From the NCBI GenBank assembly GCA_965645245.1, contig OZ287076.1, positions 2,108,001-2,172,000 of the forward strand: 64,000 bases of DNA, read 5' to 3'. This document shows, one piece after another, positions 17,440 through 63,187 of this stretch (within the stretch, counting starts at the first letter, position 1; each line of letters opens with the position of its first letter). The notes below the pieces were generated by a model. The model did not search any database. It had not been told where the DNA came from and worked only from the letters and a program-made list of their open reading frames with translations. The stretch is from Massalongia carnosa (lineage: Eukaryota). The position numbers and the translations under genes were made by a program.

Positions 17440-17498
17440 ATCATCGATACCACGAGATAGCCTAGTCATGTAAATCCGCGCCGCGCGGCTTTACAGAG

Positions 17499-27970: not shown

Positions 27971-28015
27971 AGTAATTATATGATGTTCTGACGATACGAT
28001 GGAGCCCGCGAACTA

Positions 28016-29500
28016 CGCCTAAAACAATCCCCTCGTGTATGGTACCAGATCCTGCAGGATTTTCTGCAAAATATGGGGTTTAAACGAACATATTCGGATC
28101 ATGGAGTTTATGTATCGGACGATATGTTTATAGCGATTTACGTTGACGACCTCGTCATCTTCGGAAAAGATACTTCAAAATTGCAGCAATTGCAACACGA
28201 ATTGAAGTTCCGTTTCCGCATGACGGACTTGGGAGAAGTCTCTCATTATCCGGGAATCGAAGTCGACGTCAACATCGATAAATCGGTTATAACTCTTCGA
28301 CAAACAACTTACCTGAAGTAGGTGCTGCAGCGATTTAATATGATCGACTGCAGGCCCATTTCCACCCCCATGGACCCCGGTGCCGGAAACACACTCATGC
28401 CGTCGGAAGACCAGGCCGACAAGAAAACAATTACCTGGTACCAGTCGGTGGTGGGCTTGCTGATGTGGCCAGCCATGCATACACGTCCCGACATCGCCTA
28501 TGCAGTGGGAGTCCTGAGCCGATATTGTTTGAACCCAGGCCCACTTTATTGTAAATACCTCCAGCGAATTATGCGCTATATTTCCAGTACCTTAAACGAA
28601 GGCCTCGTGTTCAGAAGAGACACCGAGGATGACATTGTAGGGAACTCGGACTCCGATTATGCTGGAACAAAAGATGGGAGAAAATCGACCGGGGCCTATA
28701 CGTTTTTGTTAGCAGTCGCCCCAATTTCTCACTGTTCCAAGCTACAACCTACCGTCGCCCTATCCACCTGCGAGGCCGAATATATGGCCCTGACGGAAGC
28801 AGCTAAAGAGGCCATTTGGTGCGCGCGATTTCTGGCCGAGTTAGGATATCGGAAGAAGAACACCCCTGTCCTACTTCGAGGGGACAATCATGTTGATTCA
28901 TACTGTCTTGGCGTTATTTGCTTTTGCCACTATACCAAGGTCAATTTAGTTATAGAGCTTCAAGCGCAGCATATCAATCAGCCTTTTCATTAATTCAGTG
29001 CAGCTCCCTCAGCCCCTTTTATATCAACAAATCAAGGGTCAATTGCATTGGCTGAAAACCCTGAATTCCACCGTCGAACCAAGCACACTGAAATCAAATG
29101 GCATTGGATCGGGGAGGTGGTTGAATTGGGAACGGTAAGCATCAAGTTTATCCCTACCACAGAGATGGTGGCAGATGGGCTTACAAAGCCGCTGGTCGCT
29201 AAACCCTTTGAGGACTTTAAGTCAATGCTTGGCATGGGCTAAACCCAAAGAGGCAAAATATACGGATAGCCTCAATCCATCAATATGGGCATCCATCATG
29301 AGCTCCGGGAGGTGCCTGGCAAAGTGCCTAAACAAGCAGATATGGAAGCCAAGGTCTGACCGTCAGGGTGCCTAAACAAGCAGATATGGGGTGACAAGGT
29401 CTGACCGTTTAGGCTCCAAGATGTGACAGTTTTGTGACTGCTATATAAAGCAGACAAATAGCCCACATAGGTCAATGACAATCATGCTATTATACCTACA
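28016..29500 (+). mobile_element. Ty1/Copia 3' remnant (RT, RNase H) with LTR-like tail
   Basis: LKQSPRVW, IYVDD, TRPDI, RKST, STCEAEY, RTKHTEIKWH, MVADGLTKPL; 29270-29500 resembles the solo LTR at 20540-20740. Confidence 0.88.
28891..29029. mobile_element. 139-bp solo LTR inserted in the Copia RNase H
   Basis: TGTTGAT..ATCAACA with TSD AATCA; removal restores GDNQGSIALAENP. Confidence 0.88.
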
Positions 29501-32500
29501 AAGTGAATCTGAAGATGGGTCTGGAATTAGCTTACGTCAATTGCAGTATAATTTCATAGTACGTTCCTATCCACTTCTCTTAGAAAGGCTGTAATTCTTT
29601 TGTTGAGGGATTTACACTGTCGACAAAATAGATTGAAAGCACACCAATATGTTAGGGCGGCTCAAGCACGGAGATAGGGTCATCATTTAATCTATAATCA
29701 TACATTATGAGTATTTTATAGGATTTTAAATAAAGCTCGAAAAAAAAACCATTGATTATATGTAGGCAAGGTCTCTGTTGCGAGATGGCGGCCATTATAA
29801 TCAGCAATATCTCGAGAGCGAAGCGTAACTTCTTTGATGATGCTTTAAGGAGCTGCAACGAGTCTCTTGATCTGTGCAAAATCCTGCAATTGAGCTTCTG
29901 GGGAACCAGCCCTGGGGAGGATCGGATTTTGGGGGCTATGCGCGGGCGGCGACTTCCGGGGTCAATTCCAGAAGCAAGGATAGATAGGGCTGCCGAAGTT
30001 TCGATTCGTAAAAATAACTTTCTTTCATGGCTGCCCCTCATTGCCTTTACGCCAATCGAGAGATGCCTTATACAAACACGTTTTCTTCAGTGAAGTTCCT
30101 CTTTATCAACAGACGTTCCTTTTTACTAAATTTGGTCGCTGGACTGTGCAAACAATCGCTAGACTTGCAAAAAGCAACAGCTGAATTCAAAGAACATTTT
30201 ACCATTATTTGCTGCGGTCACTGTCTAGTCTTGAAGAGCTACCTGTTTGTTGAACACGACTAAGTCAGTTAGTTTAAAGGCACGTCAGTCTCTCACTTTG
30301 TTGGATGACACCAATTTGAGCTGGCTGAAAAGGCAGCCACGAGCGATCACGCTTGTAGTTATATTACAATACTGCCTTTCGAGTTAAGATATTTGATTGT
30401 CTACTCTGGCCACGATCCTACTTTTTATTCTCAACCCTTGTCACTCAAGATGTCAGACGACCACACATTTCAGAGAAGCCATACTCCTGACTTGTATTCA
30501 TTGAGTCAAAGCACGCAAGCCATGGCTAAAAAGATCAAAAGGATTAGGATACAATATTGTGAGGACGATGAGCTGATTAATGAGTATAAGAAAGAAGTAT
30601 CATAGTTCAAAAGCTCATGATGATAGAGTAACTAGATGATGATGATGATTGATTCTTGTACCGATCTGACACCGGCCGAAGGCCGGCTTATGCGGGCTAT
30701 CTACTATTCTTACAGGGAAAACCTTTTAGAGGGATAAAAACCATGCAGACTGCGCCATTATCCCAAACGTGTTCCGTTTCTGGACTGCATTCTTCGCTCG
30801 ATGTTCTGTGAAATCCTTGACAAAATGAGATATCAAGCTGGTTATCACTTAGATATGCGTAAGCTTTCCAGCTTATTTGTTAGGTAGGTTTACGTTCTAA
30901 AGAGACTCGTTTTGGATTTGATAAATTGATCTGGTTTATTTAGGATGGTTGTTGATGATAGAAATCATCTCTAGCTAAATATCTATTTTATCTTATCCCA
31001 TCACCTTTTGTGCGTACTCGGTAGCCAGCCATTCACTAAGTGCAACAATTGCTAACCGAGTGACACTTCTATTAGTGGTGATATTGGCAGGCCACCTACC
31101 AATTAGTGTGGTCTAATCGGTTAACATGAGAGTTATCACTCGTATAACAGTTGCGATGCTAGTGAAAATTGGGTCAGCAAATTTGCTTTTATTATCCATG
31201 TGGTTAGTTTTTTCAATATGTTCGACGAGTTCATAATCGTTCGATAGTCGTTGGTGCCTATTTGTTTTAGCACTTCGTATCTGCCGTCGATTAGCCTGCA
31301 ATGTAGAATGATGTGTTTGGCTATCTGCTTCTGCCATCCGCACGAGCAGGCCGGGGTCATAACGCCCGGTACCCGATGATTGAACAGGAAGTTTGCCAAG
31401 CCTATTTTTTTCGGTGCGGATTTGCGTGGTTAGCGCGCTTTCCACTTTCATCAGGTTGTTGTGAATCTTCAGTCTCGTCCTACTGAGAGATCCCAACTGT
31501 GCCTCTGTCGGGCGGGGAATGCGGTTCTGGTACGTCTTCCATTTGGAGTCCCAGCGTTCCTTGATGCGTTCTGTGGTGACCTTTGTGTGTTTCTCTATGG
31601 TATGGCGTGTCGTGGTGCATTTTTCGAGGTGCGCCGGGTCAGGTGTGGATCAGGGCGGGGGCGATGGGGGCATTGTGACTGGTGCCTCGTTATTCAATAT
31701 TTTGCTGGCCCATTCGTATTTCAACTCTCCTGGGGTGAGTTGTTGCGTCCTTTTGCGTCCTGCCTTACCCCGTAGCTTGTTCGCTATTGTATTGCAGGCT
31801 TTGGAAATCAGTTTCGCCTGCCCTGCGGCCAGTAGACGATACCTTGCTTTTATCTGTAGATTGTCTAGATGCAACTTCATGGGGGCGATGAACGTTTCCG
31901 CTTCAAGAACTTCGACGGGTGTTGCCTTGAACGCCCCTGTCACGGTGCGTAAGCATTTGTTCTGCATGATGATGAGTTTGGACGTCGTGGCCTTGTTTTT
32001 CTTGATTTCCCTGGGTGTGTGCCACACGGTGCTTCCATAAGTCATTGCCGGGCGAACGACGGCGGTGTAAACCTGCCGGGCCTTCGCGAAAGAAGCTCCC
32101 CAGATGGATGTCGAAATTTTTGTGAGCGCCAGCGACTGCGACGTCATCTTTTCCTGTGTTTTCCGTATGTGGGCTCCCTATTTCAATTTGGTGTCGATTT
32201 GGAGGCCTAGAACTCGTATGTCCGTTTTCGGTTCTATTAGGTTGTTTTCCATTTGAATAGTAGCCAACATGTCGAATTTCTTTGGATTTCTGGACAAATG
32301 AATGAGCTCATACTTATCCGATGCAAATACGGACCCGTGGCGTGCCGCCCATAGTTCGCATTTTCTGTGAATTCTTTCGAGGGTTGTGCAGTTTTCTTCC
32401 GTGCTCTTGCCGTATGCCAACACATTTACGTCGTCTACAAATCCTAGCGCGCTGGTGTTTGTGCCGGGTCTCTCGCATATCTCTAAATGTCCGCATTGTA

Positions 32501-33465
32501 GAACAGGTAGAGAATAGGTGAAATGGGTGAGCGTTGAGGAATGCCCGTGAACTCCTCGGTTACTCGCCGGTTTATCGTTAGCGTGGTTCTTCTTTCCTTC
32601 AGAAAGCTTGCCGTCCAGTCTGTGATCCATTTCGGGATTTTCCTTTTTCGCAGATTGTGTATCAGCCTGCGATGAGACACTGTGTCGAATGCGCCTGCTA
32701 CATCCATGCTGAGGAGAGTTGCCACCTTGTTGTTGCCTTGTCCCCATACAGTGTGTACCTGTTCGGTGAGGAGTTCGAGCGCAGACTCGGTAGATCGGCC
32801 ACGCCGAGCGCCCATTTGTGTGTCCGGCAGGAGCCGGTGCTGTTCCGCTATATGAGTGATCTTCCTTGCGATGACTGCTTCTAATACCTTACCCATTGTG
32901 TTCAGTAAAGCTATGGGTCTGTATGCCTTTGAACTGGTATTGTATTTCTTTCCCGGTTTTCTGAGCGCGATCGTGTTTGCTCTTTTGAACTCGCGGGGAT
33001 GATACGCATGCGTGACGCAATCCTGAAATAAAGGGGTTAGCAACTCTGCTAGCTTTGTGGAGCATGCCTTGAGAATTCTGTTGGTGGTCCCGTCAGGGCC
33101 TGGAGCCTTGTCGGACTTAAGACGTTGTATGTTTGCGATCACTTCGTCATTTGTGATTGTCATGGGGCAATCCGCGGCGGCGGGGTAGAATGACCCGGGT
33201 ATGTCGCTCAAGTCAGCCGGCGGGGGGGGGGAAGAATTTGGCTTTCAGCATTTCCGCTTTTTCTTCGAACGTCTCCGCTGTTTGCCCTTCGTGCCTCAAT
33301 GGCGGCATTTTCGGTATCTTGCGGGGCTTCTGACTCTTGTTTTTTGCCCATCTTGCTAGCTTCCATATGCCCAACGGCGACTCGGTGGCTTTGCTTATCT
33401 CTTTACGAAATGAGAGCGTTTTTGCTTTTTGGATTATCTTTTGCTTCTTGTCGTTGGACTTCATA

Positions 33466-34804
33466 CAGTACTAGGTCAAAAGTTTCCGACAGCCCCCCAT
33501 CAACTTTTTACCCCCCCCACTGCTTTGAATTATCAACCACCAAGTTTTTATTTTGATGCCTTGAAACTTCGTACGATGATTACATATATTCTAGCAACGA
33601 GTTTGGGCTGAGAAATATATTTTTAATATTTCGTATACCATCCTTTCGATTGGATGCAAGCTTCAATCCTCCTTTCCATGCTCACTATTAAACTTCTCAA
33701 CATTTCCTCATCTATCAAGGCCCATGCTTCTTCCAACGCTTTCCAAAGTACCTCGTGGACCTTATCATCACTACTAGTCACCGATTCGATGTCCGGATTG
33801 ACTTGATAAACGAGCTGTTTGAGCACATACCAAACGTGCTCGATGGGATTCAAATTAGGAGAATAAGGAGGCCAATCGATGATTGTTATACCGTTTTCAT
33901 CGAACCATTTCTTCACCTTTTTGGCAGTATGAATCAGTGCATTATCCTGCATGAAAATGAGGCCCGGTTCCCAAAGTCCAAGCAGATTATCGTTCAATAA
34001 TTCCAAATATGAATTCGCGGAGTACCCCATCTTCTTTGCTTCGAAATCGCGGGCCAATTTGTAAAGATCTGACCTTTCTCTCCTCCAAAAAGCTCCCCAT
34101 ACCATAACCTTGACCTCCTTGCCTTTGGCGTACGGTTGTATCATAGGTTTTTTCCATTTTTCCTCCGGAAATCTGAACATCCATTGACGCTGTTTTCCTG
34201 ACCCCTTTTCCACCGAACACTCGTCTGACCATATAATTTTTGACCATTGCTCAGAAGTCCACTCACGCCGAAGCAAGCACCATTCCAATCTCCTCTTTGC
34301 CACCTCGGGCGTCAATAAAGGCCGCTTTTTAGCCAGCCAGTTTGTTAGACCGTAATCTTTGAGCGTCCGATAGAGAGTGGATCGACTGCATTGCACCCCG
34401 GCCTCCGTACGCAGCTGCGCATAGGTGATGCGAGGATTGATTCGTGCAAATTTGATGGTACGTCTTCTATCGCGATCCGAAAATATTCCAGGCCGACCCG
34501 ATCGCGATTTGGACTTTTCGTTGTTGCGTTCTGGGTGCTTTTGAAGAGTGTAAATGACGGTGGTTCGAGGCACATTTAATGTCTTTGCAATTTCGGCCGG
34601 TGCATGCCCCAACGTCTGGGCTCCAATAATCATTCCTCTTTGAAATTGATTCAATTCGGTATTACGAGGCTCATTACCAGAAATTGAAGCCAACGTAGTG
34701 CGTGGCATGGTGAAATGATGAGGTCAAAGTTGATGGGTTGGAGGGGTTGAAACGCGAAATCAAGAAAATCGCGGGTAGAGTCGGAAACTTTTGGCATGGG
34801 ACTG
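33466..34804 (-). mobile_element. Tc1/mariner (DD34E) DNA transposon, 1339 bp, inside LINE A ORF2
   Basis: 25-bp imperfect TIRs (CAGTACTAGGTCAAAAGTTTCCGAC vs CAGTCCCATGCCAAAAGTTTCCGAC, 4 mismatches), TA TSD (33464-65 / 34805-06); removal restores DWKAYMKSNDKK. Confidence 0.96.
33623..34708 (-). CDS. Tc1-like transposase, 361 aa, open
   Basis: N-terminal HTH and RSGRP; IWSDE, FMQDNA, SPNLNPIE with 34 residues between D and E. Confidence 0.95.
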   Translation of the reverse strand: MPRTTLASISGNEPRNTELNQFQRGMIIGAQTLGHAPAEIAKTLNVPRTTVIYTLQKHPERNNEKSKSRSGRPGIFSDRDRRRTIKFARINPRITYAQLRTEAGVQCSRSTLYRTLKDYGLTNWLAKKRPLLTPEVAKRRLEWCLLRREWTSEQWSKIIWSDECSVEKGSGKQRQWMFRFPEEKWKKPMIQPYAKGKEVKVMVWGAFWRRERSDLYKLARDFEAKKMGYSANSYLELLNDNLLGLWEPGLIFMQDNALIHTAKKVKKWFDENGITIIDWPPYSPNLNPIEHVWYVLKQLVYQVNPDIESVTSSDDKVHEVLWKALEEAWALIDEEMLRSLIVSMERRIEACIQSKGWYTKY

Positions 34805-37800
34805 TATATGCCTTCCAGTCGTCTAAGTGGCGCGATGACGACCAGAAGCGGCGCAATTTGCGAGTCTCACGGGTAGCGCGGTTGCATTCTTCGTTCCAAA
34901 AGGGTTTCGCATATTCGCTGGGTCTGGCCCAGGGGACGGAGGCGGTTATGATTTTCTGTTTGAATTGTCTGAGCGTACTGATCTATTTCTGCGGTTGAGC
35001 AGGGGTGGGTTACGGGCAAGGCCTTGCTTTCGGCCTCCCTCAATTTCTCCATGTTCAGCAGCTTCCATGCTCTGCGCTTTACTTTCGTTAGCTGTTCACT
35101 CCCGAGAAGAATGCGAGTGGATATCGGAATGTGATCAGAGGATTGATTCATTTCTGTTCTTGACATGCAGTGTTCCAGTCTTTCCGCCAGAAATTCCGAC
35201 ATGAATACTAGATCTATAGTGCTAAAAGAGTTCCGGGCTTCCCACGTGACGGTTTATTTGGGCAGCGTCAATGAGAGGTCAAATTCTTCTACTATATCCA
35301 ATAACTGATCTGCGGCTGCGTGTTGTGTTGGCCTTGTGATTCCATTACAAAAAGAGTGGTGAAGATTGAAGTCGCCGAGAAGAACGTGCTGTGCGTCTGC
35401 GGCAAGCTGCTGGCGTACGACGGGGAGAGTGGACGGGCTGTCTGTGGATGAATAAGAGGACGGGGAGAGTGGACGGGCTGTCTGTGGTGAGTAAGAAGAC
35501 GGGGACGGATTGTACACGTTATGAATGTGCAGCACTTTCGTAACCCCATCGGTACACACGTTCATTTTCAACGTGCATAGATCTGCAGTAGGGAATTCTA
35601 CTTCCCAGCTTTCCGGGTCTATTTTCTCGTTAACGTAAAAACATACGCGTGTGTCACCGCCGGGACGATACAGGAGGTGAAATTCGCTTTGATGTGAGCT
35701 GAGCGTTGTGGGAGCGTTGCGTGCTCCGCCACGGTTCCTGTATTGCTATAACATCGTAGTCCTGCGTGTTTAAATCTGCTAAAAGTGGAAGCATTGTGCT
35801 TACTCGATCATTTCTGACGTTGTACTGTAGTATGTTAATGGATTTTGTGTCCTTCATAAATCTCCTTCCATTACGTCCGTTGCCAGGGCGGTGGGGTGGT
35901 CCGATTCTGGGTCGGCGGGAGAGGGAGATGATTCAGGGGTCGACGGGGGGCGGGGGCGGGATCCGTGCGGGACGGGGCGGGTGTTGCTGCGGTTGGTGTG
36001 TTTGGTGGTCTGCCAAGAGTGGGCTTTGCCATCGCTCTTTGCATGTTCATAGGTTTCATGATCTCCGTGTCCTTCCATGACATGCCCGCTACGCGGCTGG
36101 GACCTGCCGAGGACACTTCTTGGGAACCCGCTGGGGCGGTTTTCCTTTTCTTGCTGGTGACGACCTTCCAGGCACCGTTGACGGGTCTCTCCGTTGCCTC
36201 CCCTGGTGTTGCGCTGCATTCCTTGTCCGTTGAGGTTTGAGACGAGAAGATGAATGACCGTGCTACGATCGGGTCGCCCGTGACGAAGAGCTGGGGTGAG
36301 CTTTTCCTGGCCTTCTCTATCTTGCTCATTTCTAGTAATCTGAGTTTGCATGTTGGGACCCACGCTACGTGGCCTCTCTCCTCGCAGCATGCGCACCTTT
36401 TGTGTTTACCTGTTGTTTCTGGGTTGCATTCGTTGGTCGAGTGCCCGCCGGCGCAGAGCCCGCACGCCGTTAGGTTGCGGCAGCGTTTTCCTATGTGTCC
36501 ATATTTATAGCAGTTGAAGCACTGCGTTAGCTTGCAACTTTTTACGAATTTTTCGCAATTCTTAATCTCATGATCGACGAGGACGCCCACGGTGATGAGG
36601 CGGTTCGCCATCGCGGGAGTCTCTACTTCTACATGCAGCGACGAGTATGTCTTCTATTCTTTGATGGCCCTGAACGACTAGGCGATTCTCGTGATTTTTA
36701 GGCCTGAGTGTAATGGTGCGTTAGCTGCCTGCAGGTACTGAATGGTTTGATTCTGATTGGTGGCATCGATATGTGCCATCTTTACTCCGCTAGCTCGTAC
36801 TGCATAGGTGCGGCGTTGGACTGTAGCAGACGCCGCAATCGCGGTGATCCATTCAGTGTTTTCACGTAGAGTCTTCTTGACCTCTGCTGATTCTGCGTGA
36901 ATTCATATGTCTCCGCTTGTAAGTCGCGATATTCCCACTATCCCTTCGATGTTTTTCTGCAGCGATTCCACCAACTCCTGAGTTGGCATCTGTCTCACTC
37001 TTTCTCGATCGGCCTCGTTCGTGACTCGTAGTGTGATCTCCCGGGCCCTTTTGGCCTCGCTGGGGGATGGCCTTTTGGTTTTTTGGGGTTTGGGGTGCTT
37101 AAGATTGTACGTCGGGCTTTGCCCGGCCTGGTTCTGGGGCGCCAGCGGGGTGGCCGCGGCGGCGTAGCTTGTGGGGGGATCGTTATTCTTTTTGCTGCCT
37201 TCCATGCGATTAAGTGCGTTTCTTATGTCCCGTAGGGACTCTGCTACCGTGACGGTGTCTTCGTTTTCCGAATTATTGTGAAGCTGGGCTTGCAACGTGG
37301 CTTTAACCTCCTTCAACAGAGTTTGCGCCACCGGGTCTCCTACGCTGTTACCGGGCTTTAAGTACTCATATATCTTTGCTCCCAAGAGCTTTATCTTCTC
37401 CTCCTGCTCCTTCTTGCGTTTCTCGCGGTCTTGTGCGGGTGTGTTGATCATTTTCGAAGTTTTTTTCGACTATCTCCCGAGTTTATTCAACAACAACTGG
37501 AATTATAAGAAGAACGCGATGCAACAAGTCAGAAAGTATATATTTATTAAATTTATTAATGCATCGTATAAATCTGAATATAAGATTCATCGTCGATTTT
37601 GATGATGTATTCATACTCCGATATGTCACCGACCGTAGGCCGGCCCATGCGGGCAAAGCTATCTAAGTTATGTTATATGGAAAACCTTTTTCAGGTGCAA
37701 AAACCATATCCCTTGATACCTGTCCGATGTGACACCAGGTCGACGTCGGACAGGAGACGCAGAGCGAAAATCATGTGAGAACTGTGATGCCTTGTGAGAT

Positions 37801-38898
37801 AAGAAGGAAAAGAGAAGTGAAACTACTGTTAATTGTACAAAAGTGTAGATGCCAGTGAGAATTGGGTCAGTAGACCTGTTTTCATTAGCCAAGTAGTTAA
37901 TATCTTTAGAGTTTTTGATATTTCGGTCAGCTGTTGATAGTTGTTCGTGCCAGCGGCGCAAAACATCTGTTCTCTATTGTCAATAAGTCTACAGAACATA
38001 ATTACATGTTCTGGAGTTTGTCTGTGCCAGCCACATGGGCAGGCCGGTGAGGTAACGGCGGGGACCCGTCGCTGGTAGAGGAAGTCAGCTAGACCGATCT
38101 TACCGGTGCGGATCTGTGTTGTCAGGGCGCTTTCTGCCTTTTTTAGCAGCGTGTGTATTTTCAGTCGTTTTTTGCTCAGTGGGACTGATTGCGCTATGGA
38201 GAGTTCGGGGACGCGATTTTGATATGCGCTCCACGAGTCGTTCCAGACTTTCAGCTGTCGTGCTTTAATTGTCTGCATTTGTTTTTGACGAGCCAACGCT
38301 CCTACGGAGACTTCGCGGAGATGCGCTGGGGAGGGGTCGGACCATGGTGGGTGTGCTTTGGGTGGTTGAACGATTTTTGCGTCGATCAGTAGGTTTTTGG
38401 CCCAGGTGTGCTTCAGCTCTCCCCGAGTGGGTTTTTGAAGGCGTTTGCGACCTGCCTTGCCTTGAAGTTTGTTAACTATTTTGCTGCATGCGGAAGAAAT
38501 GACCTTCGATTGACCTCCGGCTCGGAGTCGATGTCTGGCCTGCGCCTGTAGCGTGTCGAGGTGTACATCTATGGGTGCTATGTATGTCTCTGCTTCAAGA
38601 ACTGGAATGGGAGTGGCTTTAAAGGCACCGGCTATGGTGCGAAGGCAGTTGTTTTGCATAACGGAGAGCTTGCTCGTTGACGTTTTTGACTTTTTGACTT
38701 CTTTGGGCATATGCCATACGGTTGACCCGTATGTCATGACCGGACGCACTACGGCGCTGTAAACTTGCCTTGCTTTGGTGAAGGTGGCACCCCAAGTCGA
38801 TGTGGAGATTTTTGTCAATGCCATGGATTGTTTAACCATTTTCTTTTGCGTTTTGCGAACGTGCGGTCCCCATTTCAATTTGGTGTCAATTTGCAAGC

Positions 38899-40518
38899 CT
38901 AAGACTCTAATGTCCGTTTTGGTTCAATTTCGGTGTTTGCAATGTTGATAGATGCAGCCATATTGAATCTTTTGGGATTTCTAGACAAGTGAATGAGTTC
39001 GTACTTCGTCGGAGCGAATAGAGATCCGTGTCGGGAAGCCCACTTTTCGCATTGTCTGTGTATTGACTCCAGAGTCTTGCAATTCTCTTCGGTGGTTTTT
39101 CCGTATGCCAAAATGTTGGCATCGTCTACAAATCCTATGGCACTTGTGTTTGTGCCTGGTCGCTCACATATTTCCAATAGGTCTGCATTATAGAATAGAT
39201 AAAGGATGGATGAGAGAGGGGAGCCCTGTGGTATGCCAGTTCTCACCGCGAATCGTCCGGTCGCTTTTCGATTTATAGCTAGAGTTGTGCTACGATCATT
39301 TAAAAAGCTGTTTAACCAATCAGTAATCCATTTCGGGATTTTTCTTTTACGTAGATTGTGCGTTAGTCTTTGATGTGAAACTGTATCAAACGCGCCGGCG
39401 ACGTCCATGCTTAAAAGTGTGGCTACTTTATCTTTTCCTTGTCCCCAAATCGTGTGAACCTGTTCGGTTAACAACTCCAGAGCTGATTCTGTAGATCTGC
39501 TCTTTCTCGCTCCCATCTGTGTGTCGGGTAGGAGCCGAAGTGTTTCCGCTAAATAGGTTATTTTTGATCCTATGATAGATTCCATTACTTTGCTGAGCGT
39601 GTTGAGTAATGCAATTGGTCGGTAAGCCTTTGGAGTGGTGTAATTCCCTTTGTCTATTTTTCTTAATGCTATTGTGTTTGCCATTTTGAAGGCTCGGGGA
39701 TGGTACGAAAGTGTAACGCACGCCTGAAACAGAGGTGTTAATAGTTCAACAAGTTTTTCCGCGCATGCCTTGAGTACTCTATTAGATATGCCGTCAGGAC
39801 CCGGTGCTTTATCGGGCTTGAGCCGATGCAGGGCCTTCGACACTTCTGACCTGGTGATGATTATTGGACAGTGCGGCGATGCTGGATAGAAGGATCCTTC
39901 TATATCGCTTAAGTCGGCCGGTGGTGGTGCGGGAAAGAAAATGCTTTTCAGTATCATCTCTTTATTCCATTTTTCTTTCGGCAATCTGAACACCCACTGA
40001 CGCTGTTTTCCTGACCCCTTTTCCACGGAGCACTTATCTGACCATATAACTCTTGACCACTGCTCAAAAGTCCAATCACGCCGCAGCAAGCACCAATCCA
40101 ATCGTTTCTTGGCCACCTCAGGCGTCAAAGGTCGTTTTTTAGCCACCCAGTTGGTTAAACCATACAGTTTGAGTGCCCGATAAATAGTCGTACGACTGCA
40201 GCCGAGCCCCACTTCTAGTTTGATTTGTGCATAAGTGATTCGTGGATTGATTCGTGCATGCTTGATGATATAACGTCGATCGCGTTCTGACAGCACTTCA
40301 GGCCGTCCAGAACGTGATATAGACACGCCGTCGTTGCGAATTGAGTGCTTCTGAATAGTGCTCTGCACGGTCGATTTAGTGAAATTAAGAGTCTTCCCAA
40401 TCTCGGTCGGTGTGTGCCCCAACGCCTGGGCCCCAACAATCATACCACGTTGATATGGCGTCAATTCAGTGTTACGAGGCCGATTACCACTTATGGGGGT
40501 CAAAGAAGCACGAAGCAT
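38899..40518 (-). CDS. Chimeric ORF: Tc1 transposase N-terminal half fused in frame to LINE B reverse transcriptase (539 aa)
   Basis: First ~190 aa align to the 33623-34708 transposase (RNTEL..QRGMI.GAQ.LGH, ARINPRITYAQ, CSVEKGSGKQRQW), then LKSIFFPAPPPADL..KAPGPDG..GIPQGSPLS..FVDD; junction ~39950. Confidence 0.85.
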   Translation of the reverse strand: MLRASLTPISGNRPRNTELTPYQRGMIVGAQALGHTPTEIGKTLNFTKSTVQSTIQKHSIRNDGVSISRSGRPEVLSERDRRYIIKHARINPRITYAQIKLEVGLGCSRTTIYRALKLYGLTNWVAKKRPLTPEVAKKRLDWCLLRRDWTFEQWSRVIWSDKCSVEKGSGKQRQWVFRLPKEKWNKEMILKSIFFPAPPPADLSDIEGSFYPASPHCPIIITRSEVSKALHRLKPDKAPGPDGISNRVLKACAEKLVELLTPLFQACVTLSYHPRAFKMANTIALRKIDKGNYTTPKAYRPIALLNTLSKVMESIIGSKITYLAETLRLLPDTQMGARKSRSTESALELLTEQVHTIWGQGKDKVATLLSMDVAGAFDTVSHQRLTHNLRKRKIPKWITDWLNSFLNDRSTTLAINRKATGRFAVRTGIPQGSPLSSILYLFYNADLLEICERPGTNTSAIGFVDDANILAYGKTTEENCKTLESIHRQCEKWASRHGSLFAPTKYELIHLSRNPKRFNMAASINIANTEIEPKRTLES

Positions 40519-40614
40519 GGTGAAATGATGAGGTGGAAGATGGGGGGTTGATGAGTTGAAAATGCGAAATCACGAAAATTACGGGTTGGGCCGCAGACTT
40601 TTGGCACGGGACTG
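39950..40614 (-). mobile_element. Truncated Tc1 (5' TIR and N-terminal transposase) inside LINE B ORF2
   Basis: Minus strand starts TA|CAGTCCCGTGCCAAAAGTCTGCGGC, resembling the Tc1 end at 34804; 3' half absent. Confidence 0.9.
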
Positions 40615-41774
40615 TAGTTGGACCAGTCCGCTGGATCTCGTGTGTCAGACCATATGCGGCGTAATTTTTCGTGTGGCTTTGGTGGCAATATTGCATTCTT
40701 CTGTCTAGAAAGGCTTAGCATATTCGCTAGGTTTCGCCTATGGAACGGCTGCATTGATAACATTTTGTAGGAATTTTTGAATCGATTCTGTGTACGTATC
40801 GATCTCGGCAGGTGTGCAGGGAGACGTCGGTGGAGGTGCGTGGCGCTCGGCTTCCCTTACTTTTTCCAAATTCAGAAGTTTCCATGCCCTGCTTTTATTT
40901 TTTGGTTGCGACTCACTACCGAGTAGGATGCGGGTTGATATCGGTACGTGATCGGACGATGATTTAATTCTGGTCTGGTCATGCAGTGTTTAAGTCTTTC
41001 AACTAGATATTCTGACATGAAAACTAGATCGATCGTGCTAAACGTGTTTCTTGCTTCCCATGTTACGGTGCCTTTCGGCAATGTTAGCGAGAGATTGAAT
41101 TCATCGATGATATCTAACAATTGATCAGCTGCAGCATGTTGTGTGGGTCTTGAAGGACCGTTCCAAAATGGATGATGCAGATTGAAATCTCCAAGCAGGA
41201 TATGATGCACGCCTTGGGTTAGCATGCTCCGAGCGGTCGATAGAGTAGAGGGGCTGTCAGTGGACGAATAGGAGGCAGGGGAGGGATTGTATACGTTGTG
41301 TATATTGATCACCTCCGCTACGCCTTCGGTGCATGTTTCTATTTTTAGCGTGCACATGTCGGCCGAGGGAAATTCTACTTCCCAGCTGTCAGTGTCTATT
41401 GAATCGTTGATATAGAAGCACACTCTGGTGTCGCCTCCTGGGTGGTATAGAAGGTGAAAGCCACTTTGATGAGAACTGAGCGATGTGGGGGCGGATCGGT
41501 TGCGCCACGGCTCCTGTATTGCAATGATATCATAGTCCTGGGTGTTTGTGTCTGCTAAGAGGGGTATCATAGTACTCACTCTGTCATTTCTGACATTATA
41601 CTGCAATATCGACAGGGATTTTGTGTCCTTCATAGGATTTCCATGGTTTCGACCACAGTGACTGGGGTGGCCTGGGTACCTGTCGTTACTACGGATTCTG
41701 CGCGGGGTCTGCCTAGCGCTGGTTTTGCTAAGGCTTTGATCAGGTTTTCAGGATTCATAATGCCTATATTAGCC

Positions 41775-42222
41775 TGTCAAGGACTGGGCAGGGGATTGAA
41801 CTAATGTTCCTAGGAATTGGATTGGGTGATCAAGATGTCTTTATTAATAAGGCTATAGCTAGGTGATGGATTGCTATACAAGACGTCGGACAAGGAGTCA
41901 ACTATCTAATTAACTTGTCCTTCCTTTTATATTTGTCTCGAACCCCTTTGCATGAAGATTCCATCAGTGTTCATCTCCCCCTATTAGGAGACGTACGGCA
42001 CGAAGGTTTGACGAGGTGTTTGACGATAAAAGGTGGAGATGAGGTTCTCCTGTCGTTGGTACGCTTTGATGGTGATGGTACAGCTTTGACCTGAAGCCGT
42101 TGAGAGGGGTCTAAACTCGATTTAGTTAATGAGATTCTGACTAAGCTGAATAGAGGAACGGGAGCTTAGTCAGATTCATCTGCGGGATTGATTCTGGATC
42201 GGGTTGGTTCGATTTCATGACA
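41775..42222 (-). mobile_element. 448-bp solo LTR in LINE B ORF1; same family as the LTR at 63188-63635
   Basis: TGTCA..TGACA, TSD TAGCC; near-identical reverse complement of 63188-63635. Confidence 0.95.
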
Positions 42223-42657
42223 TAGCCCAAGTTAATACTTGCTCTCCTCGGGGGAAGCCCGGTGATAAATCGGCTGAGAGCCCCGCGTTGTGCATTTTTC
42301 TTTTCTTGCCGTTCACAATCTTCCATGTTGACGAAATTTCGTTCGTTTGTGTAGCTGCGAGTGTCGGCGCTCCTTGAGACTGGAATGAGGGCGATTGTGA
42401 CTCGATTGTGTATAGTGGAGCGCGATTTTGCATAGCAATTTCAGTTTTTCGCTTTTCAGCCTTTCTGATTTTGCATGCCGTAGACCACGCCTCGTGTCCC
42501 TTCTCTCCGCATACGGCACATCGACGGTATTGCCCCGTTGTCTCCAAGTTGCATTCTTTACTTTGATATCCACCGGCACAGTGACCACAAGCGGCGGGAT
42601 TGCGACATGATCTACCTATGTGGCCATATTTCTGACAATTGAAGCATTGGGTCATGG

Positions 42658-42867
42658 TGTAACTGTAAATGTAATCATCATAATAAGGGTGTGTAAAAGG
42701 ATGTCTATTGAGATTTGCGAGCAAGCTCGTCTATATACAGCTAATCTAGACTAGTCCCAATCTGGACCTGCTCCTATCATGGAAGGACCAAAGAGTTAAG
42801 CCGGGCTTATCACGGAGATAAGCAAGTGTTAGAGTACGAAAGCATGCTATGTTATATTATCGTGACA
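42658..42867. mobile_element. 210-bp solo-LTR-like insert in LINE B ORF1
   Basis: TGTAAC..GTGACA termini, splits ERFTRGC|TMTQCFNC; no TSD visible. Confidence 0.65.
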
Positions 42868-43894
42868 GCAACCGCGTGTAAAACGCTCACAGTCTTTTAT
42901 TTCGTAGTCCTCCATCAGACTCTCGGTGATAAGCCGGTTGGCCATCTCGGCGGTAGCGACCTCCATGTGTAGCGTGGAGTATGCTTTCTTCTCCCTGATG
43001 GCCTTGACTGACCAAGCTACTTTGATGATCTTGAGGTCAGGATGCAGGCGTGCGTTGGCGGCCTGCAGGTACGCGATAGCAGTTGTAAGATTGACCACTT
43101 TGATGTTTTCCAACCTGATTCCATTTGCCCTTACAGTGAAGGTACGAGTATTCACCGCTGCGGAGGCGGCCATCATGCGGGTCCAGTCGGTCTTTTCCTG
43201 CAGAATTTTCTTTGCCTCCAATGACTCCGTGTGAATCCTTATGTCGCCATTTAACAAGCGCGACACTCCTCGTATTCCTTCCGCTCCATTTTGCAATGTT
43301 TCTACTAGCTCTTTGGTTGGCATCAGATTTATTTTTTCCTTATCTGCATTCTCCGTTATGTGAACAGTGATTTCTCGAGCGCGTCGCGCTTCCTTCGGTG
43401 TAGGTGTTTTGTCCTTTGAAGTCGGTTGGGACTGGACATTTTTCTTCGCTTGGGGTGCGGGTCCATCACGACCTCGCCCCGTGGCGGCAGCGGCGTAGCT
43501 TTGGGGAGTTGTATCCTTCTGTTCTATGCGTGTCAGTGTTTGTTGAATAGATTGTAGAGTGTCATTGAGGATATTGGGCGCCTTTGCGACTTCGTCGTCG
43601 ATCTGCTTTTGCGCTTGCAAAAGCTCCGCTGAATTTTTCAGCAACTGTAACGCCACCGGGTCACCCACAGTGCCCACACGATCAAGATACTCCATGACAT
43701 TCTCACGCAAGCTTTCCTTCTTTTCGCTATGTTCATTCAAGAACGCGTTTTGCTGATTGAATGAATTCATCATCGCCCTTCATCGTCGATTTTAATCAAT
43801 CGTTATTGAGTCAAAAATTATTTACAAAGAAGAAAAGAATTATCGTGCGCGACTCGTTAAAAATATCTTCATCGAATGTCGTGTTAATCTACGC

Positions 43895-46166: not shown

Positions 46167-49100
46167 TCAACTAGATGAATTCATGTGAAGTTGTCTGATG
46201 AAGGAGAAGAATTTGACGTGGGTAAGCGGTTTGGTCAGTCCGTCCGCTACCATGTGTTCTGTTGAAACATAGGTAAGGTCTATTCGACCCTCTGTGACCT
46301 CATTCCGTATGAAGTGATGCTGAATGTCGATGTGCTTAGTCCTTGAATGTAAGACGGGATTATTGGCCAGTGCTATAGCACTCTGATTATCACCTTTCAA
46401 TTCTATAGCGCCTTCCCTTTCAAGTACATTCACTGTCGGAGTAGCATCATCCTGCATCAGGCCGAGTTCTGTCATCAATAAGCGTATCCATATGGTCTCC
46501 TTAGCAGCTAAGGTGAGTGCCATATATTCGGCTTCTGTGGATGAGAGGGCAACGGTTTTCTGTCTTTTTGAGGCCCAACTGATCGGTCCATTGTTCAGCA
46601 TGAAGACGTATCCGGAGGTGGACTTGCGGTCTTCCTTGTCACCGGCCCAATCAGAATCGGAATAGCCCTGTATAGACAAATCTCCGCCACCAAAGGTAAT
46701 GCCTCTGTTTCTGGTTGCACTGAGATATCTGAGAATCTGCTTGGCTGCCTCCATGTGTGATTTGCCAGGATTTTTGGCATGTCGGCTGACCGCTGAGGTC
46801 GCGTAGGCAATGTCAGGCCTTGTTTCTATCATAGCAAACATGATGGAGCCGACGATTGCTTGATACTGTTTAATGTCTGATTCTGAGGCCTGGGATTCAT
46901 TTCTGAATAGACTGCCTTCTTTCATTGGGGTGGTGGTAGTTTTCACGTTCTGCATATGAAATTTATCCAGGACCTTTTCGATGTAGGTAGATTGAGATAG
47001 TTTGATTGTTCTGTTATCGCGATTTCGTTCTACCTTTAGGCCTAGATAATGACTGATTGAGCCCATGTCCACCATCTTGAACGCAATGTTCAGTTGTTTC
47101 TTGACTTCAGATATCATTGGAGATCCCTTTGGATCTATGATGTTCAGATCATCAACGAAGGAGGTAACAATTGGACCTCTTATTCCTGCCGAAGAAGAGA
47201 AGATACTATGATCTGCGTGAAGTTTGGACAGACCCAGCTTGGTAAGTAGAAATTCGGATAGCCTTTCATACCATAGGCGTGGAGATTGTTTCAGGCCATA
47301 GAGAGCCTTGTTCAGTTTGCAGATCATGCCCGCTTTTTCATATCCTTTGGGCATTTGGACGTAAATCAGTTGATCTATTACCCCATACAAGAATGCTGTG
47401 ACGACATCAAGCTGTTCGATGTCCAAGTCATGATGAGCTGCTATGGCAAACAATAATCGGATGGCCATTGGTTTCACTACGGAGGCATAGGTCTGTTCGA
47501 AATCTACTCCGTACTGCTGGAGATAGCCTTTCACCACCCATCTGGATTTGTACCGTGTGATATTTCCATTGACGTCTCGTTTCAGTTTGTATACCCATTT
47601 TCCACTGAGAGCAGTATGATTGGGCTCCATATCCTCGGTTCTGACAAGAGTCCATGTTTCGTTCTCGAGAAGACTGTTGTGTTCATTGTCCATGGAACGA
47701 CTCCAGCTTTCTGAATGTGGACCTTTCATAGCTTGATGGTATGTCTGAGGTTCAGCTATGTCGAGTTGAGACAGTGCGTCATAGTCTTCCAATCCTGATG
47801 ATCCTTCCTTTTTCCAAGGTTCTGGCAAGAAGAACGAGTGGATCCTCTGTGTCTATGTAGGAGTATGTAGGAGTATGATTGAGTTCATCTAAAGCTGTGT
47901 CTGATAGAAGAGACAATGCGTGTTCTATCTGAGCATGCTTTCTGGGTCTGCCACGTCCACGTTTTGGAATCGTTGTGGGGGATGAAATGACTGTTGATTT
48001 TGATGGAGTGACTATATCGGGAGTCATGATGGCTTCGTATGTAGGAACGTTGGTCTGGTCTTTGGAGATGGCATCTTCGTGAATGCGCAGATCTTTGACC
48101 CTGATGACCCTGTAGTCCTTTTTCAGAAAGACTCGATAGATCGTGCATCCATCGTACCCACACAAGACTCCGCGTTGGGCCCGAGGTAGAAATTTGGCCG
48201 ATTTGCTGTTGGCGCCTTTGCGTTCTTCCTCATGAATGAGGACATACACGGTTGATCCCAACACTCGCAGATGATTCAGAGGAGGTGACTTTGACTCGTA
48301 AATTTCAAATGGGGTCTTTCCGGATCAAGCATTTGTAGGTCTGACGTTTTTTGTGTTAACCATAGCTAAAACCACCTCTGTCCATAGGTAGTCCGGAATG
48401 CCTCCTGCAATGATGGTACATCTAGTCATGTCCATGATAGTTCTGCCTGTTCGTTCAGACACACCGTTTTGTTCCTGTGAATACGGTGCGGAGGGTTCAA
48501 ACGTTATCCCTTCTTTCAAGAACCAATCATCCGATTTCAGACTTCGAAGTTCTGTGCCGAAATCAGTTCGAAAGATGTTTATTGGCTTGCTCTTTCCTGT
48601 CTTGTTCTGAGCTAGACTGTAGTATGTCAACAGATGATCAAACCATTCGCTCTTCTTGATGCCTGTATACACATGAGTGTATCTGCTGGCATCGCAGGTG
48701 AAGGTAAGGAAGTACTGTTCTTCAAGAAGTCCTGCTGGTTTGATGGGTCCTACTAGATCGGAATGAACCCTTTGAAAGATGCCTGTTGCTCTCTCCTGAG
48801 GTGTCCGGTTGTATATCTTAGTGGCCTTTCCGAGTTCACAGGATGAACAGTACCAATCTTTGTTCACGTTGTCTGAGTACGACACATCGAGTCTTTTCAG
48901 AAAAGCTCGGCAGGTGATCAGGTTTAAATGACCAAGACGCGCATGCCATGTTGACAGGTCTGTTATGGCTGACGTGTGGTAGACTGATGTGTTCGGCCAC
49001 TGAAAGGTGCCCTCATCTGTCTGCATAAGATGTGTAGCCACGTCTGGGGCGTCCATGGTCTTTAGTACAAAGTTTGTATTGACTCTTGGCACATAGCCTA

Positions 49101-50406
49101 TGATGTTCTGACTAATCCCGTTGAATAGGGTCCAGTTAACATTGTCATAGTAGATGTTGTTTTGGTTGAGTAGTGCCAGACGGACGAGGTTCACTGGACA
49201 CTGTGGAATGAAAAGAACGTTGTTCAGTATTAACACTGACGAGGGTGAGTCGTCCTGTAGTGCCAACGTTTTCCGGATCATTCCCCTCCCTGGAGACGTG
49301 CCATCTGATGTAGATCCTGCCAGACCTGTGGAGCGTGTTATGTAGTTGATGAACGACGGCCTGTGATTGCATACGTGCATGTCCGCTGCGCTGTCTAGTA
49401 GCCAGGTGTCTCTGTTGAGATGGTTGATGGTCATGACCTTCTGTAGAGTGGTAGTCATGACCACTGTGAGTCAACTGCTCACTGTGGGAGTTGTAGTGAC
49501 TGTGGTGTCTGGAGTTGACGTGGTGACTTCTGGATTGGAGTTCTTTTGTCTCTTGACCCTCCCTGATTCAGCCGTGTCTCCTCTCGCCCGTTTTAGATGG
49601 GGGAATTTCTGGAAACAATCATCTGGCCAATGTCGTGTTCTGTTCCTATTTACACACTCTGGAACGGTGCAACTTCCGATAGGTGCTCTACCTCTGTTGC
49701 AAGCGCCAGTGTGAAAAGCCTTGACAGTTAGGTTTCGTGCATAGGCTATGAGGATTTTTGTTGTTTCCGAAAGGTTTGTGGTGTCGTGCGTCTAGTCCCT
49801 GCGGAGTTGTGCAATGAGCGGGTCATACTTGTCTGTGCAGTTACCCAGCAGCATTCCCTGAAGTACAAACTCTATGGAGTCGACGTTCACCTTGACCTCT
49901 TCGATCAACATGCCCTTGATCTGATTGAAGGCACCGTCATACTCTGAACAGTATTGACTGACTGTGTCGAAGTCTCTCATATTTTTCGTACTAACCCTCA
50001 AGATGACATCCGTGATGCTCATTGGTGCCACGTCCTGGAACCTATTCTTCAGAATGGCCCACATCTCGGCAGCGGTCTTGTTATTGATGAGGTTGTAGTG
50101 ACATGGTGCAACCAGTCCATGGATGATTCCAATAGCCTTGGTCATCTCGGTTTTCTGTCTGTTCTTATCATCCCGAAGTTCTTTGACGAGGATGCTGGTA
50201 GTAAGACTGGCCGGAGTAAACCCTGATACGATGAGGCTCTCTCTGATGGAGTCCAATGAGATCTCTGGTTGGGTTTCCAGAATGGCTGTGTCACAGTTAT
50301 TCTTCAGCAGAATACCTCTGGTGTAACTAGCCCATGCTGAGTAGTGTTCCGAGTTCTCTAGAAGGTGAGGCTTTTCTGTGGAACTGTTGATTTCAGGAAG
50401 AGACAT
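46167..50406 (-). pseudogene. Copia gag-pol broken into ORFs 50406-49792, 49464-48325, 48264-47779, 47828-46167
   Basis: KWVYKLK, YKSRWVVKG, LYGLKQSPRLW, FVDD, GYSDSDWAG, SSTEAEY, RTKHIDIQHH; stop at ~49792 and frameshifts. Confidence 0.9.
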
Positions 50407-58100: not shown

Positions 58101-59235
58101 GGGCTTGATTGATCTAATCGGTATGGCTGCACACTTTGGAGTGGTGCGATATGTTTGCGAAGTGCTCGATCTCCCACTTGTCGAGCCTGCAAGTTTCTGT
58201 GGCCTTCGGGAATTACATGCTAACGATGGAACCGTCGTTCAGAGCCTATCGTGGGTTCCTTCTACCAATCATCAATTGCACCCTTCCGGCTACCACAAAC
58301 AGCTTAACGAACATCTCAAGTGGAAAGAAAATGACCAAGTAGCCGAGCAGACAGAGATCCAAGTGGATTCCAATGCGCTAGCCGAGACGTATCTGCTTGC
58401 TTGTTGTCATCCACTTAACATGCAAATCAACCCTGCAGCTAACCTCACTTTTGTCCGAGTCCTCCTAAAGGCATGCGCGAATCCCATGGTGCAAGTCAAG
58501 CCGGCCGAGGGCTTGTTCGGACTAGCAGACTTTCCCTACCGTTCTTGTTTCTGGGGCAAGTGGCTGGATTTCTTAATGTTTCTCACATGGAAGGACTCTA
58601 AATTTCTTTCAGCCAGACTCAACTCGGTCAATTACATTGGTCCGCTTCTCGACCCTTTACTGCGCACCCTGTTTGGAATCCACTGCTCAACTCATCTTGA
58701 TCACAACGATCATCGAGTAACTTTAGATGATATTTGGAAAACCACTAAAGCCTTAATCGCTCAAGGTGCAAACATCAATTTCCGGTACATGATCGACCTA
58801 TCTAACCAACCAACGTTTAATGTTGCACAATTCCAGGTGAAGATGTACAATATTGAGTTTAGCTGCTCGGCGATGTTTTGGCTCGAGGATCTTTTCAATG
58901 GGTTTCCCGAATTTCAAGATTTCGCTGCGGCGATAGAGTCCAAGGTCATGAGGCCGTCAAGAAAGATCGTCTGTATTGTTTACCCTTTCAAGCAATATAA
59001 CCATTCTCAGGAGCCAGCTAGAGCTTACCTCAATAACGAGGAGTCAGAGATGCTGTGGCCATTCATCGAAAAATGGGAAAAGACTTTATATCATGATGAT
59101 TTTGATGTGCTTCAGTCAGCGCTAAGACAAGTCTGGAGAGCCCACAAGCCTAATATCAAGCTACCGGGTGAATCAGAGGAGGATACGGATGAAGAGTTGG
59201 ACGAGGAGTTGAATGAGGAGGTGAATAAAAGGTAG
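55102..59235 (+). pseudogene. Fungal NLR-like NACHT gene (HeLo-like/SesA-type N-terminus), two apparent frameshifts (~56500, ~57660-57700); introns 55539-56207 and 56805-56861
   Basis: MDPITGIGLAASVVQLVQF; YWINGKAGSGKSTLM; FFFWNAG; CMFIDGLDEFDG; KICLSSRP; AEGVFLWV; HRTVRDFL; both introns GT-AG and frame-preserving; no C-terminal repeats recognised. Confidence 0.85.
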
Positions 59236-61495: not shown

Positions 61496-62600
61496 AAGCA
61501 CCAGGTCAAAAGATTCTGTCAGGGCATAGAAGGAATAAGGGCTAAGCTAACTAAGCGGGGCTTAGTTCTACGGCTAGGCTTAGTCATATGGAAAGCAGTT
61601 GGTCTGCGTTACGCGGCTGGTATCTACTGCCGAGAGTATAGTACGAGCGATCGAGATATACGAGGATGCTCGTACGATTAGTGAGCGAATAGTACGATAC
61701 AGACAGCACAGTGTCCACGATACAGTCAGCACAGTGTCTACGATACAGTCAGCACAGTGTCCACGATGCAGTCAGCAGAGTGTTAAGCCGGCTTATCCGG
61801 TAGGAGTAATGGGCGGTCAAGATAGTTACAGTATCAAGGGCCCAGAGGGTCAAGGGCTTCGGTCCGGGTATATAAGGAGGCTGCTCGAGGGAGATGCAAT
61901 CTTCAACGATTAGTCTTCCGCTTTACCTATATACTTCTTTTAGTATATTAGTATAGCAAATCATTAGTGTCTTCACATTATCACATATCCCTAGGCCTGG
62001 TGTCTGATAATCGCCAGGTCTGACTCTTACAGATTCCCACAACTTTTTCATCAGCTTTTGATTCTTATTACTGCTTTGAATTATTAATGATCGGGTTTTT
62101 ATTATGAGATCTTGAAACTTGGTGCGATTATTATATAAATTTTAACATGAAATTTTTATTGAAATTTTTATTAAAATCTCGTATATTACTCTTTCGATTG
62201 AATGCAATTTTCAATTTTTTTTATGCTTTTTACTAAAATTTTTTCAACTCTTTCTTTTGTGTCAAGCTTTTGCTTTTTTTAAATGTTTATCAAAGTATTT
62301 TTCGAGTTTTATCATCATATCGATTCATTTTTCGGATTAATCTGATAAATGAGTTCTTTATGCCAATCTCAAACGTGCTAGATGAGATTTTAATCAGAAG
62401 AAAATCAATCGATAATGGTTCTATCGGTTTTATCGAATTATTTTTCAATTTTTTTAGTAAATTAAATCGATGCATTATTCTGCTTAAAAATAAGACTTGG
62501 TTCTCAGAATTAAAGCAGATTATCGTTCAATAATTTCTAGTATGAATCCGAGAATAATTTTATATTTCTTGCTTCGAAATCGGAAATCAATTTTTAACGA
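61496..62600 (-). mobile_element. AT-rich hypermutated Tc1 relic (3' TIR and transposase C-terminus)
   Basis: AAGCACCAGGTCAAAAG resembles the TIR at 33466; ACTGCTTTGAATTAT, CTTGAAACTT, CTTTCGATTG, GCAGATTATCGTTCAATAATT align to 33520-34060. Confidence 0.85.
61517..62031. mobile_element. 515-bp solo LTR inserted in the Tc1 relic TIR
   Basis: TGTCAG..CTTACA, TSD GATTC (61512-16 / 62032-36); internal 23-bp tandem CAGCACAGTGTCCACGATACAGT (~61694-61782). Confidence 0.9.
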
Positions 62601-63187
62601 TTGTAGAATATTAAACTATTATTAATACAGTAAAAATAAATATATTCTACAAACATAACATCTGTCATAAAACGGCTTCGAACCAAAAGGATCTCGGCCT
62701 TATCCGTAGTTGCCCCCTCTTTCCTCTCCCTACCTACCGTACCGCAGGTTTATTGGAGCTACATGTTACGGTCTACCTAGAGGCTAGTCATAGGGACGCC
62801 ATGAACGAAAACAATAAAGCTGAAGAGAAAAGAAAGACTCGAAGGTCTGACCCGTCCCTATATACCAACGCGTTCCCTTGCCCTCATGCAGTACGGTCGC
62901 GAAAGAGTTTTCCGCGCTATCTCGTGAATCTCGTTATCCGACCCGTAGGTGCTCGATTAGGTTTAGCTCCTAAAGGCGAAAGGTGGAATCGTGACACTAC
63001 CCTCCGCTTTAGATCGCGAGTCACCTGACCGCGATAAAGTCCGCTTTACCTCCGTTCGTTTCATCACGTGATAGATTGAGTTATAAATGCGGTTTAACGT
63101 TGTTTGTTAGGGTGTCGTCGATAAAAGTCCTTCACCAGTTCTTCTGCATTTTCGAAGCCGTCAGCATCATACCACGTCAGGTCTTCG

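Follow-up and report, generated by a model that had tools for sequence, protein, structure and literature searches.

Two Tc1-type transposons in the homologous Tyr-Met codons of two neighbouring LINEs: probably a favoured target motif together with coincidence

Palindromic target motifs around the TA insertion dinucleotide have been published for two elements, Tc1 of the worm Caenorhabditis elegans (CAYATATRTG) and Sleeping Beauty (RCAYATATRTGY; PMC2577343, PMC9635669). The worm target-site studies cover 83 and 1,659 sites (PMC9635669). Some mobile elements are tied to a far narrower target: the accessible text of PMC4494074 describes long interspersed nuclear elements (LINEs) of the Tx1 clade that, together with their short interspersed nuclear elements, target Mariner-N4 of crocodilians, and that of PMC8869645 describes Dada DNA transposons that target small RNA genes. 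Here we analyse a 64-kb stretch of Massalongia carnosa (contig OZ287076.1, positions 2,108,001 to 2,172,000; the window), in which two diverged Tc1-type transposons, Tc1 A and Tc1 B, interrupt two diverged LINEs, LINE A and LINE B, at the homologous tyrosine codon. As in the accounts of Tx1 and Dada available to us, one and the same base in a second multicopy sequence is hit repeatedly by a mobile element. Here a DNA transposon has entered the coding region of a LINE, the reverse of Tx1 into mariner. Unlike those families, which by the same accounts have most or all of their copies in the target, all five further Tc1 ends observed here lie elsewhere. A full-text literature search turned up no account of Tc1-type elements with a LINE coding site as their target, which is not proof of absence. 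We conclude that the arrangement probably combines a motif-driven hot spot with coincidence, and that the two Tc1 insertions are probably ordinary ones.

The two LINEs lie head to tail and co-oriented on the minus strand, and each Tc1 is oriented as its LINE (Table 1). In LINE A, the coding sequence runs through ..KLRRFWSSSRHLDDWKAY to a TA, is broken by Tc1 A and a second TA, and resumes in frame as MKSNDKKQK. The junction letters are GAC TGG AAG GCA TA-TA / CAGTCCC on one side and ..ACTG / TA, continuing TG AAG TCC, on the other, and excising Tc1 A with one TA gives back ..DDWKAYMKSNDKK.. in frame. In LINE B, ..KLRRIWSDTRDPADWSNY leads to a TA and then to Tc1 B, the junction reading GAC TGG TCC AAC TA / CAGTCCC. 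Both insertion points fall within the linker between endonuclease and reverse transcriptase (RT), at its conserved Tyr-Met codons (TAY ATG), and a codon alignment places them 2 bp apart. The earlier note, made from the letters of the window, had described this arrangement correctly: its peptides and junction letters are right, the limits it gave, 33464 and 40616, coincide with the outer TA duplications, and the two Tc1s are indeed co-oriented with their LINEs at the homologous Tyr, 2 bp apart, with both parts diverged (identities of 69–71% for the LINEs and 75.6% for the Tc1s). LINE A contains 201 TA sites and LINE B 291. If all TAs were equal, a second insertion within 2 bp of the homologous site would have p ≤ 1%, a post hoc figure.

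Tc1 A has the features of a Tc1/mariner element of the DD34E type, namely a TA duplication, terminal inverted repeats (TIRs) and a transposase with a helix–turn–helix (HTH) and a DDE domain. Its TIRs are imperfect, matching at 20 of the first 25 positions and at 28 of the 45 compared; the CAGT..CAAAAGT.. ends are common to 17 related elements. The transposase matches the Pfam domains DDE_3 (6.8e-15) and HTH_Tnp_Tc3_2 (3e-14), and its catalytic residues, assigned by motif position, are D162, D255 and E290, the last two with the 34-residue spacing. Tc1 of C. elegans and Sleeping Beauty are alike in the TA duplication, the CAGT termini, the combination of DDE_3 with a Tc3-type HTH, and DD34E. Over the 190 transposase codons that remain, Tc1 B shares 95–97% amino acid identity with P0036, which stands for a cluster of 64 sequences at 90% identity, and with P0027. 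Tc1 B therefore belongs to a live multi-copy family.

Empty versions of both sites exist. We aligned Logan contigs from four public runs (one of a lichen metagenome, two of an organism A and one of an organism B) to 33000-41000 of the window at 80% likeness; contig depth in these runs is not a copy number, and the ratio of occupied to empty sites is not countable from contigs. An A-type empty joint, 33463->34805, omits 1341 letters (the element and one TA), has two shared letters and occurs in all four runs. A second form, A', joins 33464->34813 with seven other letters between, giving AAA GCG TAC ATG AAG on the coding strand. The B-type empty joint, 33463->40613, reads AAC TAC ATG AAG (runs X3 and X1). 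Proteins give the same picture: P0035, 88–94% identical to LINE A in amino acid sequence, is contiguous over the A site (residues 68-123 on 34973-34806 and residues 124-205 on 33464-33225), and the B-type empty site, ..DWSNYMK(S/P)NDKK.., is present in P0121, P0128, P0132, P0133, P0134 and P0138. A-type LINEs thus offer two TAs (GCA TAT ATG), the second of which took Tc1 A, and B-type LINEs a single one (AAC TAC ATG), which took Tc1 B. Since B-type LINEs are without the second TA and the empty sites of the two subfamilies show different TAs, the 2-bp offset is genuine and does not come from slippage at the junction. Empty-site LINEs, proposed in the earlier note as a check, are thus found for both types in contigs and in proteins, and its argument from the offset to independent insertions stands. 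In our view, Tc1 A and Tc1 B very probably inserted independently.

The same note had taken Tc1/mariner elements normally to need only TA, which is too strong. A TA is the target here, and around it a palindromic motif has been published (PMC2577343, PMC9635669) that the LINE site half-matches. The TA used in LINE A has a perfect 5' half-site (CATA-TA), and the TA adjacent to it a perfect 3' half (TA-TATG); TA-CATG of LINE B agrees at three of the four half-site positions. Because of this half-match to CAYA-TA-TRTG, the TAY ATG codons are among the few favoured TAs: the published half-site accompanies 7 of the 201 TAs in LINE A and 4 of the 291 in LINE B. Ends and TA duplications could be located in 17 of 37 full-length relatives, one of them a duplicate locus, leaving 16 elements. 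Their 32 half-sites contain TRTG three times (background 0.65%, p = 0.001), YAT seven times (background 5.7%, p = 0.002) and YATG four times (background 0.6%). The half-site of Tc1 and Sleeping Beauty is thus likewise enriched in the flanks of the 16 relatives, and the LINE A site is a perfect instance of it. Unlike worm Tc1, this is a fungal family (of a lichen-type ascomycete), and the first position of its half-site seems relaxed to Y (TA-YAT); the evidence for a preference here comes from 16 elements, against 83 to 1,659 sites in the worm studies (PMC9635669, PMC2577343). We infer that motif preference drew both Tc1s to the Tyr-Met spot.

By this combination of motif and chance, a single fungal DD34E Tc1 family would have supplied both elements, each from its own subfamily and each entering a different LINE subfamily through one cut-and-paste insertion: Tc1 A at the second TA in GCATA-TA-TG, Tc1 B at the sole TA of AAC-TA-CATG. 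The half-match of the Tyr-Met codons would place this spot among a handful of favoured TAs per LINE, with coincidence making up the remainder. The LINE copies would have been killed by the insertions or have been dead beforehand. Afterwards, a deletion at a Glu-Met stretch would have removed the 3' half of Tc1 B together with neighbouring LINE codons.

Several points weigh against this explanation. The motif accounts for the coincidence only in part. At the LINE B site one half matches it imperfectly and the other (GTTG) poorly, and the YAT/YATG variant of the motif was picked post hoc, with the data already seen. By a rough weighting, a second insertion at the homologous spot would have a chance of about 0.3-7%, depending on the scoring of the motif. 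Each of the two LINEs of the family in the window carries a Tc1, and in each case the Tc1 is LINE-oriented. Finally, of 19 related LINE proteins that extend as far as the site, six begin exactly at the Met that follows it (P0001, P0127, P0005, P0017, P0007 and P0142), and a Tc1 upstream would look alike. Such starts were tried as a proxy for occupied sites and rejected: other conserved Met residues are comparably used as starts (EML in four cases, KMP in three and MGLW in one, against the six here).

A position-specific hot spot, that is, a preference of the Tc1 for the LINE linker beyond the TA motif, through DNA structure or a tethering factor and with the LINE as a safe landing pad, has in its favour two independent insertions from two subfamilies, 2 bp apart and in the same orientation, in both LINEs of the window, one of them at a site that matches the motif only partially. 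In both LINEs, moreover, GACTGG (the Asp-Trp codons) stands 7–9 bp upstream of the junction, at 34815-34830 and 40625-40632 (minus strand), and corresponds to the Tc1 terminus CAGTC(C) in reverse complement; this may be chance, the bases being fixed by conserved amino acids. Against such a hot spot stand the other copies. The five further Tc1 ends, a small and unsystematic sample like the LINE protein counts, are all in non-LINE DNA. The transposase open reading frame (ORF) of P0152 extends upstream through the end-repeat into ..GRRNH/TVPCQK, P0123 and P0124 read ..FAMY/SHVPKVCG, and in two contigs the Tc1 end is followed by TA and then by unrelated sequence. Thirteen of the 19 LINE proteins that reach the site are uninterrupted (P0121, P0035, P0010, P0044, P0012, P0004, P0128, P0134, P0138, P0133, P0132, P0149 and P0164), and searches for junction-spanning proteins gave no other example. 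More distant Tc1 relatives (27–60% identity) occur at 80 loci that a transposase alignment picked out of metagenome contigs; none of these loci has a Tc1 inside a LINE linker, and at two of them (L016 and L062) an uninterrupted LINE lies close by. An exact search of the metagenome contigs for a 25-base end-repeat pattern gave no match.

We consider a position-specific hot spot unlikely. Site specificity for LINE ORF2 as a trait of the Tc1 lineage, the first of the two explanations offered in the earlier note, would place most copies in one target. The small, unsystematic samples do not support this: the five ends and all 80 loci lie outside LINE linkers, the third Tc1 relic of the window lies outside this LINE family, and most of the LINE copies sampled are unoccupied. 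A weaker form, in which the Tc1 family has a heightened preference for the LINE ORF2 Tyr-Met codons, finding a safe harbour there and inactivating the LINE copy as a side effect, seems to us decidedly doubtful.

The other explanation offered was an old LINE::Tc1 composite that spreads as a unit. It would have formed once, multiplied through retrotransposition in trans or a tandem duplication of neighbouring copies, and diverged since. The two copies are adjacent, head to tail and co-oriented, and their nucleotide divergence is alike in the two parts, at 24% for the Tc1s and 27–32% for the LINE parts (31.6% in the linker). A dead unit would decay evenly by codon position and by part; instead, both parts bear the mark of strong purifying selection, and their synonymous depths are unequal. 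Differences at codon positions 1, 2 and 3 are.20/.09/.59 in the endonuclease (EN),.20/.17/.55 and.22/.17/.59 in the RT, and.23/.13/.36 in the Tc1s (chi-square test of heterogeneity, p = 8e-7 for the Tc1s and p ≤ 1e-12 for the LINE parts). By the Nei-Gojobori method, Tc1 A and Tc1 B differ by a nonsynonymous divergence (dN) of 0.21 and a synonymous divergence (dS) of 0.77 (dN/dS 0.275), and LINE A and LINE B by a dN of 0.15–0.26 (EN and RT) with dS saturated or above 3. The third-position difference is.36 for the Tc1s against.58 for the LINEs (p = 9e-7). Protein identities between A and B are 66–76% in EN, 71–76% in RT, 41–47% in ORF1 and 70% in the transposase N terminus. From the uneven codon positions and the unequal synonymous depth, it follows that the LINEs and the Tc1s each diverged as working elements, and that the Tc1 subfamilies split after the LINE subfamilies. 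Decay of the type of repeat-induced point mutation (RIP) was considered as a source of the A/B divergence and rejected: transitions are not dominant (EN1, for example, has 73 transitions and 60 transversions), and long ORFs are retained.

Further evidence also argues against a composite. The Tc1 A ORF is still intact, and Tc1 B is 95–97% identical to copies elsewhere, including P0152 with its non-LINE flank. The empty site of each LINE subfamily fits its own TA, and no further composite was found. Word-index searches at the 'near' and 'longer' lengths and a full HMMER search gave no second LINE::Tc1 junction protein, which is weak evidence because such ORFs are short and may escape gene calling. 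The 'near' search returned only P0121, an empty site, and the 'longer' range no candidate; the four HMMER matches were P0121, P0123 and P0124 (Tc1 ends with non-LINE flanks) and P0122, a repetitive protein that was judged unrelated and rejected as a junction protein. With junctions 2 bp apart, codon-position bias in both parts and unequal dS, a composite is very improbable, and we reject it. Homology-dependent copying, in which gene conversion or gap repair carried a Tc1 from one LINE copy to the other, would suit the same position in related neighbouring repeats, but the Tc1s are 24% diverged, the LINE flanks are about 30% diverged up to the junction and the 2-bp junction difference is as the empty sites predict, leaving it hardly any probability at all.

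Relative to the layout of LINE A, the B copy is without 886 bp (A 34137-33251), which comprise the 3' half of the Tc1 and about 70 LINE codons. Comparison of the B junction (..KEKWNKEMILKSIFFPAPPP..) with an intact transposase, P0036 (..KEKWNKEMIQPVPKGK..), and an intact LINE, P0121 (..FDEKAEMLKSIFFPAPPP..), suggests a microhomology deletion, joined at a short Glu-Met stretch common to both parts. Contigs of the intact B-type Tc1 continue beyond 39951 (joints 34036/34075->39951), and the intact B-type LINE continues beyond 39939. The deletion leaves a fusion ORF in which the HTH of Tc1 B is in frame with the RT of LINE B. Among the 120 matches listed for it, none spans both halves, the best query coverage being 70%, and we take the 556-aa fusion to be a probable incidental by-product of the deletion.

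Contigs also link an A-like Tc1 body to a B-like 5' untranslated region (UTR), with six other letters between (joint 34741/40559), and two contigs have a Tc1 end about 30 bp from another Tc1 end. From the A-like/B-like joints and the B-type contigs that run beyond the deletion point, it follows that the genome holds several intergrading Tc1 subfamilies. The third Tc1 relic, which had been put forward as a caveat, is real, and no LINE of this family is beside it. Its 62601-62070 resembles positions 740-1289 of Tc1 A, and a terminus like the end-repeat, followed by TA, lies near 61505-61535. Its AT content is extreme beside that of Tc1 A and Tc1 B, and it looks like the product of RIP-type or other heavy transition decay, by which the two LINE-borne copies are unaffected.

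Both LINEs are of the apurinic endonuclease (APE) type, with the endonuclease upstream of the RT and the domains Exo_endo_phos_2 and RVT_1 in each; in P0128, an intact relative of 1096 aa, both domains are within one ORF. Their ORF1 products are gag-like, with Cys/His knuckles, and LINE A has several frameshifts. They may belong to a Tad-like (Tad1/I-like) clade, to judge from fungal matches with RNase H domains. No third copy of the family is present in the window. At 37470-37830, the A/T-rich 3' end of LINE B meets the 5' end of LINE A in a head-to-tail tandem, and in each of the four runs repeat depth rises about tenfold at 37539, which suggests that one LINE inserted at or beside the tail of the other. 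LINE A also contains a tandem duplication of about 40 bp at 35420-35500 (ACGGGGAGAGTGGACGGGCTGTCTGTGG.. twice), of which contigs of related copies omit 39 bases (joints 35452->35492 and 35458->35498).

Table 1. Positions of the LINE and Tc1 features in the window
Feature	Position	Strand	Description
LINE B	37540..43779	(-)	APE-type non-LTR (long terminal repeat) retrotransposon, from ORFs and Pfam; broken by the Tc1 B remnant
LINE B ORF1	43779-42215	(-)	From the ORF list
LINE B endonuclease	41747-40872	(-)	Pfam Exo_endo_phos_2, 7e-19
LINE B linker	40856-40617	(-)	Endonuclease-RT linker
Tc1 B TA target	40615..40616	(-)	In AAC-TA-C ATG, Tyr codon of LINE B
Tc1 B remnant	39951..40614	(-)	5' inverted repeat, 5' UTR and first 190 transposase codons
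Fusion ORF	38899-40569	(-)	556 aa; HTH_Tnp_Tc3_2 of Tc1 B in frame with RVT_1 of LINE B
LINE B RT and C-terminal part	39950-37829	(-)	Pfam RVT_1, 4e-28
LINE B 3' UTR	down to ~37540	(-)	3' limit placed by the repeat-depth jump at 37539
LINE A	31113..37538	(-)	APE-type; 5' end against the 3' end of LINE B
LINE A ORF1	37469-35871	(-)	From the ORF list
LINE A endonuclease	35932-34867	(-)	Pfam Exo_endo_phos_2
LINE A linker	34982-34807	(-)	Precedes Tc1 A
Tc1 A 5' TA duplication	34805..34806	(-)	Second TA of GCA TA-TA-TG
Tc1 A	33466..34804	(-)	Complete, 1339 bp; TIRs of ~25 bp (CAGT..CAAAAGTTTCCGAC)
Tc1 A transposase	34708-33623	(-)	Intact, 361 aa, DD34E
Tc1 A 3' TA duplication	33464..33465	(-)	From the letters and the empty-site joint
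LINE A RT and C-terminal part	33463-31113	(-)	Follows Tc1 A; Pfam RVT_1
Third Tc1 relic	61505..62601	(-)	Degenerate, AT-rich; outside this LINE family

The rest of the window is rich in long transposon-like ORFs (950-19265, 46167-49470 and 56862-59235) and holds a copia-type polymerase remnant at 27992-29242 (+). Inspection of the ORFs revealed no ordinary genes near the LINE/Tc1 locus, the long ORFs elsewhere being unannotated. With LINE, copia-like and Tc1 copies stacked together, the window resembles the ordinary nested insertions of repeat-rich, gene-poor fungal DNA. Insertions into dead repeats are neutral and accumulate. Unlike ordinary nesting, two insertions within 2 bp of a homologous site are unexpected from nesting alone.

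If motif and chance account for the locus, it would illustrate how conserved codons (TAY ATG) of one transposon can repeatedly receive insertions of another, and would have no consequence beyond that. If the enrichment were true genome-wide, this would be a cut-and-paste transposon that targets the coding sequence of a retrotransposon, and it would bear on safe harbours and on the mutual restraint of mobile elements in repeat-rich fungal genomes.

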